Positions 5,950-47,600 of a stretch of DNA of 64,000 bases are shown here, one piece after another. The translations under genes and the position numbers were made by a program. The DNA is taken from positions 640,001 through 704,000 of the forward strand of contig CAVQBA010000006.1 in assembly GCA_963710605.1 (NCBI GenBank), given 5' to 3'. Source of the DNA: an uncultured cyanobacterium. GTDB taxonomy: Bacteria; Cyanobacteriota; Cyanobacteriia; Cyanobacteriales; Cyanobacteriaceae. Below the pieces are notes generated by a model. The model ran no database searches, had not been told where the DNA came from, and saw only the letters and a list, made by a program, of their open reading frames with translations. Positions within the stretch are counted from its first letter, which is position 1. Each line of letters starts with the position of its first letter.

Positions 5950-8737
<2,788 letters not shown>

Positions 8738-8839
8738 AAAAAAGCATTTGAATTAAGAAGAAAATGAAATTGAGTCGGAAGTAATCGAGAAATCTATGCA
8801 GTCTTGAGGGGGATTTAAAGTAATCCTTTTCCAAACAAT

Positions 8840-39884: not shown

Positions 39885-40457
39885 ATGTCAGATCTTGAAA
39901 ATTTAAGATTACCTGAATCTCATTTTAATATTTTACAAATTTTAAGTGCTTTAGCATGGGCAGATGGAGATTTAAGCCAAAAAGAAATCAAAATCTTATT
40001 AGAAGAGTTTAAAGAAGATTTACCAGTCGAACCTCAGGCTATATCATTAATAGATAACACGGGAATAGCTAATTTAAATCTTGAGCAAGAAGCATTTGCC
40101 TTCGAGCAAATGGAAAAGAGAATTAATGCTGAATTAGCTTTTCAACAAATTATTGAGAATTATCATCAAAATCCTATTCCTTTGACTGATTTGGTTTCTA
40201 AACTAAAGACTAGCGAAGATCGTAGTTTAACTGTTAAGTTGGCTTATATGCTGATTTGTGTAAGCTATGACTCTAAAACACAGACAATTCCATTAGTTGA
40301 AAAAGCTCTTTATCGTGAATTAATTCAACTTCTAAATTTGGATAACAATTTAGTTAAAGAAATTGAATGGGAGGCGAAAAAAGAATTAGATGAGTTTCAA
40401 CATCCTTTTAAAGCATTCATAACTAGTATTGGAAATATTTTAAACACAAAAATTTAA
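39885..40457 (+). CDS. TerB-like domain protein
   Basis: LAWADGDLSQKE motif and helical pattern with C-terminal EKALYRELIQLL. Confidence 0.65.
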   Translation: MSDLENLRLPESHFNILQILSALAWADGDLSQKEIKILLEEFKEDLPVEPQAISLIDNTGIANLNLEQEAFAFEQMEKRINAELAFQQIIENYHQNPIPLTDLVSKLKTSEDRSLTVKLAYMLICVSYDSKTQTIPLVEKALYRELIQLLNLDNNLVKEIEWEAKKELDEFQHPFKAFITSIGNILNTKI

Positions 40458-40577
40458 GCTCGATTGATTTAGCTAGTTATTAAAAGTAGATTAAGAAAGT
40501 CAAATAGGCTTTTGTTGTCAAGTTGGTGTGTTTCTTGTATGCTAAAATTTGAGTGTTTTTTAGGCAAAAAGGTTGAG

Positions 40578-41054
40578 ATGGGTATTACTGTTGAAGTTAG
40601 TCAAGAACAAATCGATCGATTAGATTTATCTAGTGTCTCGACAACGATTGAAGAATTAAGCCAAAGAGGAGAAATTACGACATTAGAGCAACAGCTTAGT
40701 TTTAATATCGATTATAAAACTAGTGAAACCGATCCGCGTGAATTATCAGAAATTCCTGAAGTTAGACTTTGGTTTATCGCTTTAGATAGTCATTATCCTT
40801 GGTTACCGTTTTGTCTTAACTGGAGAGAAGGAGAGTTAGCTAGATACGCCGCCATGCTAGTTCCACATCAGTTCAATCGTACTGAGGGAATTCAATATAA
40901 TAGTGAGGCATTAGATATTTTTATCATGCAAAAAACTTTTATTTTGAATAATTGGCTAAAACAACAGAATATGAAAAGTAATTCCCGTCTTAAAGCTATG
41001 GCACAAATTTTTGGTTATGATTTGCAAGGTGATTTTCTTGATTTATTACCATAA
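40578..41054 (+). CDS. CRR6-family NDH-1 (NdhI) maturation factor (DUF1817)
   Basis: DPRELSEIPEVRLWF...YPWLP...GELARYAAMLVPHQF; ATG at 40578. Confidence 0.9.
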   Translation: MGITVEVSQEQIDRLDLSSVSTTIEELSQRGEITTLEQQLSFNIDYKTSETDPRELSEIPEVRLWFIALDSHYPWLPFCLNWREGELARYAAMLVPHQFNRTEGIQYNSEALDIFIMQKTFILNNWLKQQNMKSNSRLKAMAQIFGYDLQGDFLDLLP

Positions 41055-41254
41055 TAAATTTTAGTTGATTATGTTTTAATCTCTATTTAGTTCGGCAATT
41101 TGTTCTCAAAAATTATCAAATCACTCAAATTATTTTTTGTTATATTTATTGATTACTATTACTTAGTTTGAAACTATTTTCTTTCCTAGTCAGTCTATTT
41201 ATCTAAACATAATTTTAATCGAATCTAATAATCAAGTTTTTTTAGGATAATTAT

Positions 41255-41992
41255 ATGAAGAGCGGTAAATTTAGTTTATCAAATTTAAGTTTTTTAATTA
41301 TTTCCACGATCGTAATCTGTCTAACTTTAGCTTTTGGGTTTAATCCAGTTATGGCACAAGAACAAGTATTATCAACTTTAACAGTTACTGGGCAAGGAAT
41401 AGAAAGGATTCCTACTACTCTAACGCAGGTACAATTAGGAGTAGAAATTGAAAACAAGACAGCACAAGAAGTACAACAAGAAATTGCCGAGCGTACTTCA
41501 GCAGTGGTAGATTTACTTCGTCAACGTCAAGTGGAAAAATTAGAAACGACAGGAATTAATTTACGACCTAATTATAAATACGATGGTAATAATCAAAGAA
41601 GCTTAGTTGGCTATGTTGGCACAAACACAGTCAGTTTTCGACTTCCTACAGAGCAAGTCGGTAATATCTTAGACGAAGCAGTAAAAGTAGGTGCTACACG
41701 AATTGATAATATTAGTTTTACGGCTACGGATGAAGCTGTTAAAACAGCAAAAAAAGCGGCTTTAGCTCAAGCTACTGGAGACGCACAACAACAAGCTGAT
41801 GCTGTTTTAGATAGTTTAAATTTAAATGCTAAAAAAATTATCAGTATTCAACTCGATCGAGCCAATCCTCCTCAACCTGTAGTTGTTCGAGAACAAGCTT
41901 TATCCTCACGGACAGCTAACGATGCGGTAACTCCTGTCATTGGTGGTGAGCAAACGGTTCGTGCTTCTGTTACTTTACAAATTACTTATTAA
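41255..41992 (+). CDS. SIMPL (DUF541) domain periplasmic protein
   Basis: Signal peptide; TLTVTGQG...GATRIDNISF...GEQTVRASVTL. Confidence 0.9.
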   Translation: MKSGKFSLSNLSFLIISTIVICLTLAFGFNPVMAQEQVLSTLTVTGQGIERIPTTLTQVQLGVEIENKTAQEVQQEIAERTSAVVDLLRQRQVEKLETTGINLRPNYKYDGNNQRSLVGYVGTNTVSFRLPTEQVGNILDEAVKVGATRIDNISFTATDEAVKTAKKAALAQATGDAQQQADAVLDSLNLNAKKIISIQLDRANPPQPVVVREQALSSRTANDAVTPVIGGEQTVRASVTLQITY

Positions 41993-42136
41993 AGTTTTTT
42001 ATTGATTAATCGATGTGAGATTAACATTTATCTGTGGAGTAATTAATTCGATCGATATTTATTAGTAGAATTTGATACCTAAATATTAGATAATGTAAAA
42101 TTATTGTTCATTTATTTATCAATACTAATAGTTATT

Positions 42137-42601
42137 ATGCCTTTACCTAGTAATCTTAAAACTATTGACGGTACTAGCTTAGCTAGTTCAGAAATAGAAG
42201 ACAAAGTTGTTTTATTTGTTAACGTCGCTAGCCAGTGTGGTTTAACACCTCAATATTCTGGTTTGGTGGAATTAGAAAAAAAATACAGTGACAAGGGATT
42301 GAAAGTTGTTGGCGTGCCTTGTAATCAGTTTGGCGCACAAGAGCCGGGAAGTCCAGAAGAAATTAAAGAATTTGCTAAAAGTAAATATGATGCTGATTTT
42401 ACTTTACTAGAAAAACAAGATGTAAATGGGGCAAATCGTAGCCCTCTTTATCAATTTTTAGTTGATGATGGTAGCGATATTGGTTGGAATTTTGGTAAAT
42501 TTGTTGTTGGGCGTGATGGCGAAGTGGCAGAGCGTTTTGAGCCTAAAGTTGCACCTGATGATGCTGATTTAATTGCCGCTATTGAAAAAGCTTTAGGTTA
42601 A
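42137..42601 (+). CDS. gpx: Glutathione peroxidase-like protein
   Basis: VNVASQCGLT, PCNQFGAQEPG and WNFGKF motifs; ATG at 42137. Confidence 0.95.
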   Translation: MPLPSNLKTIDGTSLASSEIEDKVVLFVNVASQCGLTPQYSGLVELEKKYSDKGLKVVGVPCNQFGAQEPGSPEEIKEFAKSKYDADFTLLEKQDVNGANRSPLYQFLVDDGSDIGWNFGKFVVGRDGEVAERFEPKVAPDDADLIAAIEKALG

Positions 42602-42618
42602 TTTATTGATTTAATGTG

Positions 42619-42643
42619 AAGTAGAGATTAATAGTCTCTACTT
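42619..42643. terminator. Hairpin after gpx
   Basis: AAGTAGAGA-TTAATAG-TCTCTACTT perfect stem. Confidence 0.65.
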
Positions 42644-42684
42644 ATGCCTGAGAAACGATCGATGTAAGACTATAATTTGCTTAT

Positions 42685-42843
42685 TGTCTGTATCAGGATT
42701 AAACAGGATTGGTAGATTAACAGGATGTTTTGTTTTTAATTAGTTCGTTATTATCGAAATTATCCTACCATTCACAATACAAACTGATACACTATTAACA
42801 ATCATCCTACAATTGGTTAATTCTCTAAATTCTGATACTGATA
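42685..42843. repeat. ~155-bp structured palindromic repeat, copy 1 (3' of the GxxExxY gene)
   Basis: Left arm TGTCTGTATCAGGATTAAACAGGATTGGTAGATTAACAGGATG pairs with right arm CATCCTACAATTGGTTAATTCTCTAAATTCTGATACTGATA. Confidence 0.8.
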
Positions 42844-42853
42844 AGTAAGTTAA

Positions 42854-43228
42854 TTAATTATATTTGCGATTAAAAATCTTTTTATATTGCAAACTATTAC
42901 TACCAAAATTAATTAATAAGCCGATCGGAAAATCATAAGCAACGACATAATTTTTTGCTTGGGCTAAATGTACATTTTCTAAATTAATTACCGCTTTAAG
43001 TTCAACAATTATTTTATTCTCTACAACAAAATCTGCTCGTCTTGTGCCTACTTGTGTACCTTCATAAAAGATAGCTTGTTCTTTTTCTCTTTCATAAGTT
43101 AGATCACTTTTTTGAAATTCGATCGCTAAACATCTTTGATAAATTACTTCTTGAAAACCATTACCAAGAGTGTTATGTATTCTCATTGAGCATCCTATTA
43201 CTTTGTAGGTGATGTCTTCTAATTTCAT
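42854..43228 (-). CDS. GxxExxY family protein (PD-(D/E)XK nuclease superfamily)
   Basis: GNGFQEVIYQ motif, RADFVVE..IIVELKA, Q...NY and GLLINFG. Confidence 0.93.
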   Translation of the reverse strand: MKLEDITYKVIGCSMRIHNTLGNGFQEVIYQRCLAIEFQKSDLTYEREKEQAIFYEGTQVGTRRADFVVENKIIVELKAVINLENVHLAQAKNYVVAYDFPIGLLINFGSNSLQYKKIFNRKYN

Positions 43229-43266
43229 TCACCCATTCATAATCTCTTATTTTTAAATAATTATAC

Positions 43267-43420
43267 TGTCTAGATCAGGATTAGACAGAATTATTTGATT
43301 AACAAGATTTTTCGTTTCTAATTTATTTATTATTATCAAAATAGTTCGATCGATTTATAATACAAACTAGAACATTATCAACAACAATCCTGAAATCCCT
43401 TAATCCTTAAAATCCTGATT
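43267..43420. repeat. ~155-bp structured palindromic repeat, copy 2
   Basis: TGTCTAGATCAGGATTAGACAGAATTATTTGATTAACAAGATT ... AATCCTGAAATCCCTTAATCCTTAAAATCCTGATT; direct repeat of 42685-42843 at ~582-bp offset. Confidence 0.8.
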
Positions 43421-43434
43421 TTAGGGGGGAATAA

Positions 43435-43535
43435 TTAATTATATTTAGGATTAAATACTCGTTTATGTTGTAAGCTATTACTACCAAAATTAATTAGTAA
43501 GCCGATCGGAAAATTATAAGCAACTGTATAATTTG
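43435..43535 (-). pseudogene. 3' remnant of a second GxxExxY gene copy
   Basis: Reads NYTVAYNFPIGLLINFGSNSLQHKRVFNPKYN* versus NYVVAYDFPIGLLINFGSNSLQYKKIFNRKYN* in the intact gene, 581-bp offset. Confidence 0.85.
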
Positions 43536-43563
43536 GAAATAATTAATATCTTTCATAAATAAA

Positions 43564-44541
43564 ATGGATGAAAAAAATTTAGAAAATAACGATAATAATA
43601 TAGAAGGGGAGTCAGGTTGTTGTTGTCTGGGTTGTTTATTCTTTTTTATTTTTTTTGCATTTTTGATTCCTTACTATATAAATACATCGAGTATTATTGT
43701 TGAACAAATTAATAAGACTTACGATGTTTTTTGTAATGATCTTCTGGATGAAAAAATTTTAGAGGTCTTTTTACAACATAATATTTTTAGTATTTTTCCT
43801 CATGAAAAAATTCCTGAAATATTACAACTAATATATATATCTCCAATGATTTTTATAACATATATAATTACAATTATATTTTGTTTAATAATTGTTTTAT
43901 TTGGCATTTTTGTTATTTTATGGGTACTATCTCTGATTATATATGTAGTTATATATCTACCTATCATCCTAATTACACGTATAATGATAATGATAGATAA
44001 AACTATCTTCTTTTTAGCAGATAAAATATTTTTTATTGATTGGATAATAGGTTTATTCGGAATTATCGTTTTTGCACTACCAAACTTATTTTATTTTCTT
44101 AAATGGATACTTAAAATATCTTTGATAGGAACTTCAATAATTTACGAGTTTATAAAGAAAAAACTATATGAAGATATAGAAGTTAATGACGAATTAACTG
44201 AAAACGAAGATACGAATTTAGAAAATACTAATATTAAAAATCAATTACAAAATAATCAAATAACCCCTCAAGAAGAGTTATTACAAGCAGAAAATAATGA
44301 GAATAAGTTTAATCAAATGATTATCAATTATATAGAAACTCAAAGTAAACTGATAGAAGAAAAAGAAAATAAATGGAAAGAACAAAAAGAAGATGAATGG
44401 ATAGAAGATAAATCTCAACTAAAGGTAGTAAAATTTATAAACTCATGGAAATTTGAGAATTCAACTCTTTTCATAATTGACAAAAAAATTATTATAATTA
44501 GAAAAATAGTTGTTAGTTTGATGTCTGTAGCAAAAAAATAA
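43564..44541 (+). CDS. Hypothetical, very AT-rich membrane protein with acidic coiled-coil C-terminus
   Basis: 325-aa ORF with several Ile/Phe-rich TM stretches; no recognised family. Confidence 0.6.
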   Translation: MDEKNLENNDNNIEGESGCCCLGCLFFFIFFAFLIPYYINTSSIIVEQINKTYDVFCNDLLDEKILEVFLQHNIFSIFPHEKIPEILQLIYISPMIFITYIITIIFCLIIVLFGIFVILWVLSLIIYVVIYLPIILITRIMIMIDKTIFFLADKIFFIDWIIGLFGIIVFALPNLFYFLKWILKISLIGTSIIYEFIKKKLYEDIEVNDELTENEDTNLENTNIKNQLQNNQITPQEELLQAENNENKFNQMIINYIETQSKLIEEKENKWKEQKEDEWIEDKSQLKVVKFINSWKFENSTLFIIDKKIIIIRKIVVSLMSVAKK

Positions 44542-44645
44542 TTCACTAAGTAAAAGAAAAGATACTTATAATTTGATAATTTATAGATAATTTACGTAAG
44601 TTATATCGTAAATACATGAATGTAGATTACAAGTTTGAATTTTAA

Positions 44646-47600
44646 TTAAACAATAACCCCCTCCAACTCATCATCAGCCATATCATACAACCCTCTCAAC
44701 TTCTCTAACTTATCCTCATCTGCATCCCAAAAACCACGCCCTGAAGCCTCTAACATTCGTCCAATAATATTACGAAACGCCTCTGGATTAGCTTCTCTTA
44801 ACTTATTTGCCATCTCTTCATCTAACGCATAAGTATCCACCGCTTGATCATATACCCAGTCATCGGTAAAATCAGTTGTACCTGCCCAACCAATCATCGC
44901 CGTCATCCGTTGGGAAATTTCATATGCACCGCCCGAACCTTGCTCAGACATAGCTTTTGCCCATTTAGGATTAAGTAGCTTGGTGCGATACTCCATCCTT
45001 AATACCGATTCTAATTGACGAGGAGTAGTATCCTTAGAAAAACTCTCCACAAAACTAGCCGTTACTTTTTTACCGCTTTGTTTTTCTGCCGCTCGTTTTA
45101 ATCCTCCTGTATTAGCATAATACTCTTGAATATCCGTTAAGCCATACTCTACCGAATCAATTTCTTGCACTACCGTTGAGCTAGTTGCTAATAGTTTATC
45201 CAAAATTTCGGGGCGTGTTTGCCCTTTATCTTTTCTGCCATAACTAAAGCTATTTCTACCCTTCCATGTATCTGCTAACTCATCACCAGACTCCCAATCA
45301 CCATCTACAACTCGATCGTTTACTAACGAACCAAAATCACCGCTAGGATTAGAAAATAGTCTTGCTGTCGGATTTTCTATCCCTTTTTCTTGTAACTCTA
45401 AATAATGTTTACGAATAAAATTATCCTCAATCGATTCATCCGCTAAAGATGCCCTTGTAAATAAATCGTCTAATAATTCAATGATATTGACAAAAGTATC
45501 ACGGAAGATTCCTGATAAATTACCTAAAATATCAATGCGAGGATGACCTATTTTATCTAAAGGCATTAGCTCATATCTAACTATTCGTCCTGTGCCTTCT
45601 TTGACAGGCTCTGCACCTACTAATTCTAATAAAATACCGATCGACTCCCCTTTAGTTTTAATCGCATCTAAACCCCATAACATGACCGCTACTGTCTCTG
45701 GATAACTACCATTGTCGGTTAAATTTTGTTCAATGATTTTTTTACCGATTTCTCTACCTCGTAAATATGCACCTTGTGATGGCATCCGATAAGGGTCGAG
45801 TGCGTGTATATTTCTACCTGTAGGTAAAACACCAGCACCATCTCGAAGTAAATCTCCACCAGGGGCAGGAGGGATATATTCACCATTCAAACCTTTAAGT
45901 AAGTTAGTTAATTCATCGTCTGTTTGCATCAGTAAATCAGTAATTAACTGTTTCTGCTCAAGTCTTTGTTTTGATTCTTCTTCTTTTAAGGCTCTTTTGT
46001 TAGCACGATCGATTAAACTACTATTATCTAAATCTTTGGTAAATTCGGCTTGTTGTTGAGTATCATCAAAATAAGCATCTAGATATGAATTTAATTGTTC
46101 TTCTGTTGGTTTTGCACCAAGAATATGCAACCCTGAAGAAAATAATCTTTGCTCGACTATTTGTAGGTAGTCATATATTTTAATAAAGTAATCGTTTAAA
46201 GCTGACTTACTAAATAATTTAGCATTCTCGGCAGTTAAATCAATACCTCTTTTTTGAGCTTCATTAAATTGACAATCTTTATTTAAACCACTATCAACAA
46301 TCTTTTGAATAATATCTTGTCTTAATAACTCATTTTTATCTGTATCTTCTCGATACTCATTAATTAACTCTTTTAGTGCCATTAATTCTTTATATAATCC
46401 TGCCCTTCCGTAAGGAGGCACGTTATGAGAAATTAAGACACCGTAACCTCTACGTTTAGCTAACATCGATTCGGAGGGATTATTAGCGGCATAGATATAT
46501 AAGTTGGGTAAATCACCAAGTAATACATCCGACCACGAATAACCTGTATTACCTAAAGGATTACCAGGTAGCCATTCCACTGTGCCGTGCATCCCAAAGT
46601 GAATTAAAGCATCAGGTTGATATTCATTTTGTAACCATTTATAAAAGGCGGCGTACTGAGGATGAGGGGTTAAATCTTTCTCAAACATAAGCCTCATCGG
46701 GTCTCCAGCGATACCTAACGGTGGTTGTACTCCGATCCAGACATTACCTAATTGTATGCCACCTATTTGAAATCGATCGCCAATGGTTTTTATTCCTGTT
46801 TGGGTTAAGTTACCCCATTGTTTTTCCATCCGCTGGGTAAGGATATAACCAAGCCATTTTTCAAGAGTTTGTACATCGACGGAATTTGAACCCCCCGACT
46901 GCGTCTCCCCCCTTACGAAGGGGGGCTGGGGGGGATTGTTTCCATTCCTTACTAAAGCAGACTGGGGGCGATCGTTTTTACCACTTTGTAAGGGGGGAAT
47001 ACTATAAGAGAGAAAATCATCGGCGTTTTTAACAGCTTTAATAATCTCTTCACCATCTTCTGGTATCTCGCCTACGTCATAACCTTCTGCCTTGAGAGAG
47101 GTTAATAATTTACGTAAAGATTTAGGCACATTTAAAAGTGCGGCTGTACCTGTCGCTCCATATCCGGGGGGAAAGCCATATAATATAATGGCTATTTTAC
47201 GATCGTTTTTCTCTTTTCTTCTTAAGTTTATCCAACTGTTAATACGACTAGTTAAACGTTTGACTCTGTCTGGTACAAGATATATCTCTTCTCCTACTAA
47301 CCCTCCTAATGGTATAGTATCGATCGCACCATCTAATTCTGGCAGGGCATATAACACTACACTTTGTAATCCACCAATACCTTGTCTTACCCACGATTTG
47401 ATGTCTTGAATTAACAAAGGGGCGGCAACGATATAAGGAATATTTTTGGCGGTTAAGATAGTTTTAGCTACTTCTACTTGTCTTCCTGCTTCCATACTAC
47501 CAGCAGGACCACCCACTAAAGGAAAACCGATCGTGGAAACGATACTATCTACTTGCACCGCCTCTTGAGACAAAGACAATGTATCTTTGATACCTACATT

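Follow-up and report, generated by a model that had tools for sequence, protein, structure and literature searches.

A GxxExxY nuclease-fold gene and its clade-specific repeat arms: a candidate mobile element in Cyanobacteria and Bacteroidota

Why does a small gene of the GxxExxY family lie between two copies of the same palindromic repeat? The question is raised by a locus in the genome of an uncultured cyanobacterium (assembly GCA_963710605.1, here G000; 3.93 Mb in 7 contigs, 33% G+C), in which we analysed one stretch of 64,000 nucleotides, the window (contig CAVQBA010000006.1; C6:640001-704000 in our numbering; coordinates given below without a contig label count from its first base). A preliminary description of this DNA had proposed that the gene and the palindromes form a mobile or cassette system. 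Our analysis indicates that the repeats accompany the relatives of the gene in other genomes, and that the window may hold one representative of a widespread kind of mobile DNA, composed of a nuclease gene and its repeats and operating in the manner of the repetitive extragenic palindromes (REP) and their REP-associated tyrosine transposases (RAYT), or of insertion sequences (IS) and miniature inverted-repeat transposable elements (MITEs). This is the likeliest of the readings considered, though in our judgement it could equally well prove right or wrong.

Each of the two palindromes, ~160 bp long, is an inverted pair of ~45-nt arms whose inner ends lie ~65 AT-rich bases apart. An arm consists of four GGATT/GAATT-type units 8-10 nt apart, starts with TTGTCTGTATCAGGATT or ACTGTCTAGATCAGGATT, and has a conserved outer terminus, TGTCnGnATCAGGATT. 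With a hidden Markov model (HMM) trained on 23 arms from the source genome alone, we examined the surroundings of relatives of the window protein, taking the best 80 of 588 confirmed loci, whose proteins are 67-85% identical to it. At E<=1e-3 the model has matches in 72 of these loci and none in the other eight; the 46.4 kb of sequence up to 300 bp from the gene contain 175 arm hits and the remaining 355.7 kb contain 47, a density of 3.77 against 0.13 per kb and thus a 29-fold difference. An arm pointing to the gene is found at most 150 bp upstream at 45 loci, an inverted arm at most 150 bp downstream at 40, and both at 27. Because arms flank the relatives in so many loci and are so much denser nearby, the link between gene and arms is not due to local chance. 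The preliminary description had named enrichment of the repeat next to GxxExxY genes elsewhere as its test, with an ordinary MITE as the alternative; the test is strongly positive, and neither target-site duplications nor a known IS terminus were found (ISfinder was outside the comparison). An unrelated MITE that a local tandem duplication had captured along with a nearby gene, the link between the two being coincidence, would account for the 581-bp tandem duplication in the window and for the position of most source-genome arms far from any GxxExxY gene; it is refuted by the arms around the relatives and by the distinct arms of other clades described below, and we give it practically no chance of being correct.

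The 80 loci are labelled as Bacteroidota, Cyanobacteria, metagenome-assembled genomes (MAGs) named Akkermansia (Verrucomicrobia), Ignavibacteriota, Leptospirales, Beijerinckiaceae, Janthinobacterium, and Methylococcaceae (the last three Proteobacteria), although some MAG labels may reflect mis-binning. Identical GxxExxY proteins with their arm arrays occur under different phylum labels in two pairs of loci, L045 (Microcystis) and L049 (a Beijerinckiaceae MAG), and L137 (G005) and L031; since such short contigs are probably mis-binned, the taxonomic breadth read from MAG labels needs care. No relatives were found in phages, and in plasmids there were two weak matches (55% and 48% identity).

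The features of the window locus, with E-values from the arm HMM, are as follows.

42682..42760 and 43264..43342: direct repeat pair a, 78% identical
42770..42836 and 43353..43419: direct repeat pair b, 73% identical
42851..42953 and 43432..43534: direct repeat pair c, 85% identical
42682..43534: palindrome and gene repeated in tandem, ~581 bp per unit; 42682-43263 forms unit 1 and 43264-43534 the truncated unit 2
42684..42731, + strand: palindrome 1, left arm, with TTGTCTGTATCAGGATT as terminus and then three further GGATT-type units (E 3.2e-11)
42732..42797, no strand: palindrome 1, AT-rich spacer joining the inner arm ends
42798..42844, - strand: palindrome 1, right arm, units decayed to GAATT/CAATT (E 1.7e-5)
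42854..43228, - strand: intact GxxExxY gene, 124 aa, predicted minimal PD-(D/E)XK fold, matching PF13366 and TIGR04256
43265..43313, + strand: palindrome 2, left arm (E 3.7e-10)
43314..43380, no strand: palindrome 2, spacer with TTCGATCGA
43381..43428, - strand: palindrome 2, right arm, four intact GGATT units and a degenerate outer terminus (E 6.4e-8 over 43381-43421)
43432..43534, - strand: remnant of a second GxxExxY copy, its last 32 codons and stop, 85% identical to 42851-42953

Self-comparison and alignment of the window give all three direct-repeat pairs the same 581-583 bp period. The outer terminus of the right arm of palindrome 1 lies 10 nt from the stop codon of the GxxExxY gene and that of the left arm of palindrome 2 lies 36 nt from its start codon. 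In the remnant of the second copy, stops precede the 32 residues, and unit 2 of the tandem repeat breaks off where an ORF (open reading frame) at 43564-44541 (+ strand) begins; this ORF encodes a hydrophobic protein of 325 aa, is very AT-rich, and is without a Pfam match. The repeats and the PF13366 match confirm that direct repeats, described earlier as ~155 bp long, bracket a GxxExxY gene, and the end of a second, diverged gene copy at a ~581-bp period is likewise present as described. The account of the arms as four GGATT/AATCC-type units at 8-10 nt was accurate. The palindromes had also been called hairpins; their inverted-arm structure holds, and an exceptional folding stability does not, as the z-scores of the two copies are -1.4 and -0.2 as DNA hairpins (+ strand) and -0.9 and -3.5 as RNA hairpins (gene strand; -3.5 being that of copy 2). 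What lies far beyond chance is the arm sequence itself, with ~30 copies in the genome and enrichment across phyla, not hairpin stability. Nor is the palindrome the repeating unit, as first supposed; that role falls to the single arm of ~45 nt, found alone, as inverted pairs, around the gene, and in long tandem arrays. A check for an empty allele of the window site gave nothing, as gpx does not adjoin chlH in any of 30 relatives; one relative alone (G006) has a gene-less palindrome ~1 kb from chlH, with a different AT-rich ORF of 277 aa between them.

What kind of protein accompanies the arms? The only Pfam match of the window gene is PF13366 (PDDEXK_3; E 9.1e-38, 129.7 bits, cut-off 22), and the protein also matches TIGR04256 (GxxExxY; E 1e-39, 135.5 bits, cut-off 35). 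Across 56 diverse members, residues G22, G24, E27, Y30, E76, K78, Q90, Y94, N107, and F108 are invariant and D66 is conserved in at least 90%; the G-x-x-E-x-x-Y motif corresponds to G24, E27, and Y30, and the predicted catalytic residues are E27, D66, E76, and K78. The AlphaFold2 model (predicted local distance difference test score, pLDDT, 96.4) has the order helix-helix-strand-strand-strand-helix-strand-strand, and its nearest Foldseek matches are Cas4 SSO0001 (E 5e-5), the restriction-endonuclease-like structure 3ijm, lambda exonuclease, and Hjc. A sequence search of the PDB with the window protein returned nothing meaningful. Judging by the model, we are confident that the protein has the alpha-beta-beta-beta-alpha-beta core fold of the PD-(D/E)XK superfamily, and on sequence grounds the gene appears to be an intact minimal nuclease under purifying selection. 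PF13366 is listed in a table of Steczkiewicz et al. 2012 with the function 'Unknown' and the remark 'multiple transfers'. In the literature searched, which took in RAYT/REPIN and intervening sequences and left subscription journals, ISfinder, and family-database comments aside, neither a description of such an element nor any work linking PD-(D/E)XK proteins to cognate repeats was found, and 'GxxExxY' appears in at least one paper as a passing annotation label; 16-18-mers of the arms do not occur there, and 10-11-mers occur only in papers that are unrelated, as judged by title and abstract.

The association extends beyond the window type of arm. PF13366 is present in 69 of 121 sampled Bacteroidota genomes. 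For 30 Bacteroidota loci, selected by best score from about 215 matches with a single locus per genome, the 300 nt upstream of the gene were aligned to the reverse-complemented 300 nt downstream, with 60 window pairs of the same geometry from the same loci as controls; the median score is 36.5 against 19 in the controls, and 25 of the 30 loci score above all 60 controls. Among the relatives of the source genome the gene is patchy (8 of 31), and 8 of 9 PF13366 loci of cyanobacterial relatives show flanking inverted arms, as judged by eye with no control set. Family-wide, the arms contain two to four direct units of 7-9 nt, spaced 8-10 nt, and the type of unit follows the clade of the protein: GGATT-type in the window clade, and CACAGAG/CGCAGAG/CGCAAAG, CGGAT-type, or CACGAAA in others. 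Mapped on a tree of 56 proteins, the unit label needs 11 changes against a mean of 26.8 for shuffled labels, with none of 200 shuffles as low; the labels are crude and automatic, we grouped 5-mers into them ourselves, and near-copies inflate the clustering. The window clade (22 tree rows; Shimodaira-Hasegawa-like approximate likelihood ratio test, SH-aLRT, 98) is uniformly GGATT-type. Termini are identical across phyla at ~70% protein identity while the spacers between units vary freely, which points to sequence-specific reading of the units.

A pairing of gene and arm type is also found within the source genome, where there are only two PF13366 genes, each flanked by its own arm family. The HMM finds 30 window-type arms at E<0.01, six of which form three palindromes, two in the window and one at C7:250593-250757 with no GxxExxY gene nearby; a check on solo copies shows that the remaining arms are solo and dispersed over intergenic DNA. 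The second PF13366 gene (C7:99829-100218) encodes a protein 41% identical to the window protein, and the inverted arms at its locus (C7:99729-100560) consist of three CGCAGAG units with 9-nt spacing and an AACC terminus; its downstream arm is tandemly duplicated together with ~165 bp of C/A-rich DNA. Some 30 copies of this second arm are dispersed through the genome, its pattern giving 34 hits and the reversed control 5. Both families are extragenic, with none of 30 window-type arms and two of 30 arms of the other type inside ORFs of at least 120 aa, and arm orientation follows no rule with respect to neighbouring ORFs. For a comparison of presence or absence of the solo arms, the intergenic DNA of G001, from the same genus, and of four family members is too diverged to align. 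One solo arm lies within a ~290-bp local tandem duplication (C7:423600-424150), with ~75 bp, a gene start among them, recurring to either side of it, and heptamer-type tandem repeats (GACAATT/CAATTGA runs) adjoin solo arms at C6:715640-715700, C4:1089640-1089690, and C4:1325250-1325290.

Are the arms read as DNA, or do they pair as RNA? The usual Bacteroidota layout is arm-gene-inverted arm, 458-621 bp in length, and 35 of the 80 loci are simple blocks of this kind, with termini TTGTCTGAATCAGGATT...AATCCTGATTCAGACAA (matched with up to three substitutions); at further loci, for the most part cyanobacterial and with the window among them, the gene is flanked to the left and right by a complete inverted pair whose termini face it. 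The left flank of 25 of the 35 simple blocks ends in AA, often from the stop codon of the upstream gene, and no target-site duplication was found at the ends of any of the 35. It had been suggested that the hairpins pair as RNA around the ORF; in the fullest form of this idea, the element behaves as a ribosomal intervening sequence does, in that the arms pair in an operon transcript, RNase III excises or insulates the ORF, and the repeats are selected for pairing. Both arms should be transcribed, since the gene often lies within operons such as hsdS-hsdR and leuC-leuD and shares its orientation with 118 of 145 neighbouring ORFs (taken as the longest in 900 nt rather than as curated genes), and the RNA fold of palindrome copy 2 would also fit. 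However, over 16 variable columns of the 35 simple blocks, the complementarity of a left arm to its own right arm (0.361) is no better than to the right arms of other elements (0.338; 183 of 2000 permutations as high), so that compensatory pairing between the arms of an element is lacking. Left arms resemble each other (0.394) more than right arms, a systematic left/right difference, and solo arms and tandem arrays in one orientation cannot pair at all. The other three folds of the window palindromes are unremarkable, and an Rfam search of 41000-45000 and eight loci at a permissive E-value returned no family, only chance matches of microRNA or leader type far below the gathering scores. We therefore consider selection for RNA pairing very improbable; conserved units and terminus, free spacers, and non-equivalent ends favour a protein that reads repeated DNA units.

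Does the block of gene and arms move? In Mucilaginibacter flavus a block lies exactly between leuC and leuD, its left terminus overlapping the last leuC codons and providing the leuC stop codon and its right terminus abutting the leuD ATG, while in the relatives G542 and G549 the gap between the two genes is 10 and 3 bp, with no arm. Blocks are present at this junction in G558, G548, G543, G541, G537, and G538, and other relatives hold different inserts; in G552 the end of leuC still contains 17 nt of the terminus. A Pontibacter virosus block (G034:C2:256569-257132) has no counterpart at the orthologous intergenic site in G095, G081, and G087; there the flanks, 82-85% identical, are 29-77 bp apart, and the 'empty' alleles keep 11-12 nt of the terminus. 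Neither of these two resolved insertions has a target-site duplication. The retained termini could indicate that the arms pre-exist and spread by other means, and that each GxxExxY clade is a homing-type nuclease, which cuts the repeat pair that it prefers, is copied into the break, and for that reason always comes to lie between inverted arms. The position of the gene between inverted arms, the existence of gene-less inverted pairs, and the abundance of arms without the gene agree with such homing, but the whole block is inserted at leuC-leuD where G542 and G549 have no arm, the gene-adjacent arms are conserved across phyla along with the gene, and the loops of gene-less pairs are unlike the inner flanks of the gene copy. 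We regard homing as decidedly unlikely.

Other inserts were seen at the same sites. The leuC-leuD spacers of G553 and G552 (L206, L207) contain a different, ~110-bp palindromic element with ends ATGTCATTGCGAGCG...CGCAATGACAT, and G540 and G552 have a small extra ORF at the junction. The orthologous Pontibacter site of G093 (L159:1050-1409) holds a DUF559 gene (PF04480, E 1.5e-31) with its own long, G+C-rich inverted repeats, which suggests that a gene between inverted repeats is a layout not unique to PF13366. In P. virosus, all four gene-less arm pairs examined at L211-L214 have another palindrome, (near-)perfect and of the GGACAGGTCGCGACCTGTCC type, ~15-25 nt past the right terminus, suggesting a composite repeat or nested targeting.

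The arms reach high copy numbers. Counts of a 16-mer of the terminus, with up to two mismatches and the reversed pattern as control, gave 111 matches in Pontibacter fetidus (control 1), 110 in M. flavus (control 1), 163 in Cronbergia (control 4), 60 in the Bacteroidales MAG G032 (control 1), 56 in P. virosus (control 2), and none in Pedobacter planticolens (control 3); the matches in these genomes are mostly solo arms. G403 has 246 exact arm matches, including a satellite, a 42-copy tandem array with an 81-bp unit and 97% identity. After this array, L198 (G403:C1:500900-505300) continues with three inverted arms at a 59-bp period, and L200 consists of five forward arms followed by 12 inverted arms; these two are 'expanded palindromes' made of arms. 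A CRISPR-like reading of the 81-bp arrays was rejected, the units being 97% identical with their 'spacers' included. Tandem arrays also include the gene: in G032, units of gene plus right arm vary from one to four among otherwise identical copies, with periods of 489-532 bp and 97-99% identity, and are the same kind of array as that of the window.

Do genomes rich in arms have the gene? Among 301 cyanobacterial genomes, at least 40 hits of window-type arms are found in G403, G302, G357, G024, G261, G176, G322, and G000. A protein at least 64% identical to that of the window is encoded in five of these eight arm-rich genomes against four of the 293 others; the 40-hit cut-off was picked after the counts had been seen, and six of the eight genomes are from one family. 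For the second arm pattern, absent in 286 genomes and abundant in G000, G170, G331, G349, and G261, the thresholds were preset at 10 or more arm hits and a protein at least 60% identical to the second paralogue, and the test failed, with such a protein in none of the four other arm-rich genomes. The best relatives of the second paralogue are 54% (G331) and 45% (G261) identical, and none is found at E<=1e-25 in G170 and G349; post hoc, the 45%-identical gene of G261 proved to be flanked by CGCAGAG arms and the gene of G331 by a variant unit. There is no PF13366 match (E<=0.001) in G349, with 129 arm hits, or in G176, with 84 hits of the first type, and G170 has only a PF13366 fragment. The abundance of arms in genomes without a detectable GxxExxY gene does not fit a strict dependence of the REPIN (REP doublet)/RAYT type; it fits relics that outlive the gene, as many MITEs do, or mobilisation by another agent.

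These results on co-occurrence weigh against a GxxExxY-driven mobile element, as do four further points. The co-divergence of arm and protein could arise simply from their linkage. The layout of the window differs from that of the Bacteroidota, as the gene lies outside both palindromes with the arm termini towards it. The ~10 near-identical copies in G032, which we rejected as a sign of transposition, all lie within one larger repeat. Finally, in the gene-less palindromes of P. virosus the arm consensus is slightly different, and the loops bear no relation to the sequence just inside the arms of the gene copy.

Could the gene be a passenger? In that case a transposase of some known class, encoded elsewhere, would move the arms in trans as the ends of a MITE-like element, with GxxExxY as the cargo between them, for instance a defence or addiction gene (a 'mobile insertion cassette'). 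The arm-rich genomes G349, G176, and G170 would be expected under this model, and the termini of the arms start TGT...ACA, which is typical of many DDE elements. Pfam scans of 81 of the 145 neighbouring ORFs, covering 44 of the 80 loci, place 19 of the 44 in restriction-modification operons (Methylase_S, N6_Mtase/HsdM_N, HSDR_N/ResIII, Eco57I), also in keeping with cargo, and six inside leu/ilv operons. One MAG alone, G032, has ORFs of IS110-family transposases (PF01548/PF02371; L129:1073-2044, L130:5651-6727, and 7666-8742) at a distance of a few hundred bp from arms of a variant type with the terminus ...CATGATT, in the same orientation throughout. For IS110 elements, repeats are usually targets and not parts of the element, and those of G032 may be targeting this one. 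Against a passenger, no transposase domain was found among the 81 scanned neighbours, and no transposase ORF lies consistently near the 80, 30, and nine loci examined. Arm types, at least four in number, go with four clades of the protein, and a single genome holds two of the types together with both cognate genes, so that a separate unseen transposase would be needed for each clade. The lack of target-site duplications at the two resolved insertions and the 35 block ends also argues against it. A passenger gene is, in our opinion, unlikely.

We thus return to GxxExxY as the agent of a mobile element. Several protomers of the nuclease would bind the repeated units sequence-specifically, the units lying about one helical turn apart, and would introduce nicks or cuts in or close to the conserved terminus. 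By repair or strand transfer, the arm-gene-arm block, and gene-less arms in trans, would then be copied or moved to new sites without target duplication, which could also generate the tandem arrays. Of this, the association of gene and arms, its specificity for clades, the presence or absence of the block at orthologous sites, the many extragenic copies, and the conservation of the active site are observed, and the binding and cutting of the arms by this protein and its part in their spread are our inference; the 581-bp tandem repeat of the window may be a by-product of nuclease activity or of unequal recombination at the arms. A bolder proposal, which we make tentatively and hold less likely to be right than wrong, is that a GxxExxY protein of ~125 residues, with no other enzyme, drives a transposable or self-copying element of a new class. 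One protomer would read each 7-9-bp unit, and the units recognised would have branched into many lineages (GGATT, CACAGAG, CGCAGAG, CGGAT, CACGAAA, and others), each giving rise to a separate extragenic repeat family across bacterial phyla. If this were true, 'repetitive extragenic' DNA would have a second, REP-independent origin, and the GxxExxY family would offer a ready-made collection of small nucleases with sequence specificities of their own.

A clade-specific link to repeats would give PF13366, a large family annotated only as 'GxxExxY protein', a testable function. It would explain abundant extragenic repeats in Cyanobacteria and Bacteroidota (more than 100 matches in several genomes, and the 42-copy satellite) and would bring a nuclease fold that is not known to carry out transposition by itself into the set of enzymes shaping bacterial repeats. 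The matched pairs of protein and DNA unit could be used for studying or borrowing compact sequence-specific DNA recognition. For annotation, it is relevant that blocks lie within restriction-modification and leucine operons and can provide the stop codon of a host gene.

How does the element compare with known systems? The PD-(D/E)XK fold breaks DNA in several mobile or selfish contexts, including TnsA of Tn7, the homing endonuclease I-Ssp6803I, and Rpn/YhgA (PDDEXK_2), which have the same catalytic fold as the window protein. TnsA needs a DDE partner, TnsB, and I-Ssp6803I resides in an intron; we know of no report of cognate multi-unit repeat arrays for any of the three. The preliminary description had also likened the locus to attC cassettes, a comparison that we do not follow, as no integrase-like ORF is present within 40000-46500, the local region covered, and the arms are multi-unit arrays unlike an attC site of the canonical R''/L''-L'/R' form. 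The intervening sequences of 23S rRNA with an S23p ORF in Coxiella and Leptospira (PMC4990558) are similar in having a small selfish ORF and inverted repeats and in preserving the transcription unit. They differ in that our block lies between protein genes, not in rRNA, contains PF13366 rather than PF05635, and shows no sign of selected arm pairing.

The likeness to IS and MITEs, especially IS200/IS605, which make no target duplication, lies in terminal inverted repeats around one gene, gene-less derivatives, and presence or absence at orthologous sites with no target duplication. In contrast to these, no recognised transposase (DDE, HUH, Ser, or Tyr) was found in the gene or among the 81 scanned neighbours (ISfinder being outside the comparison), the ends are multi-unit arrays, solo ends outnumber paired ones, and in the window type the gene lies outside the inverted pairs. 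The parallel with REP/RAYT drawn in the preliminary description is borne out by the dispersed cognate arms and by the flank enrichment. In both, one small nuclease-type gene lies between inverted copies of an extragenically dispersed repeat; its copies number from tens to hundreds, either single, in inverted doublets, or in arrays, and its sequence is specific to the gene lineage. However, the enzyme is of the PD-(D/E)XK type here and an HUH/Y1 (IS200-like) transposase in RAYT; an arm is made of direct 7-9-nt units and a terminus, whereas a REP is an imperfect palindrome of 20-40 nt; and here the gene and arms are common to several phyla (67-85% protein identity), the gene is patchy (8 of 31), and arm-rich genomes without it exist. 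Because its enzyme class, its repeat architecture, and its lack of target duplication do not fit the defining features of either group, the element belongs to neither REP/RAYT nor IS/MITE.

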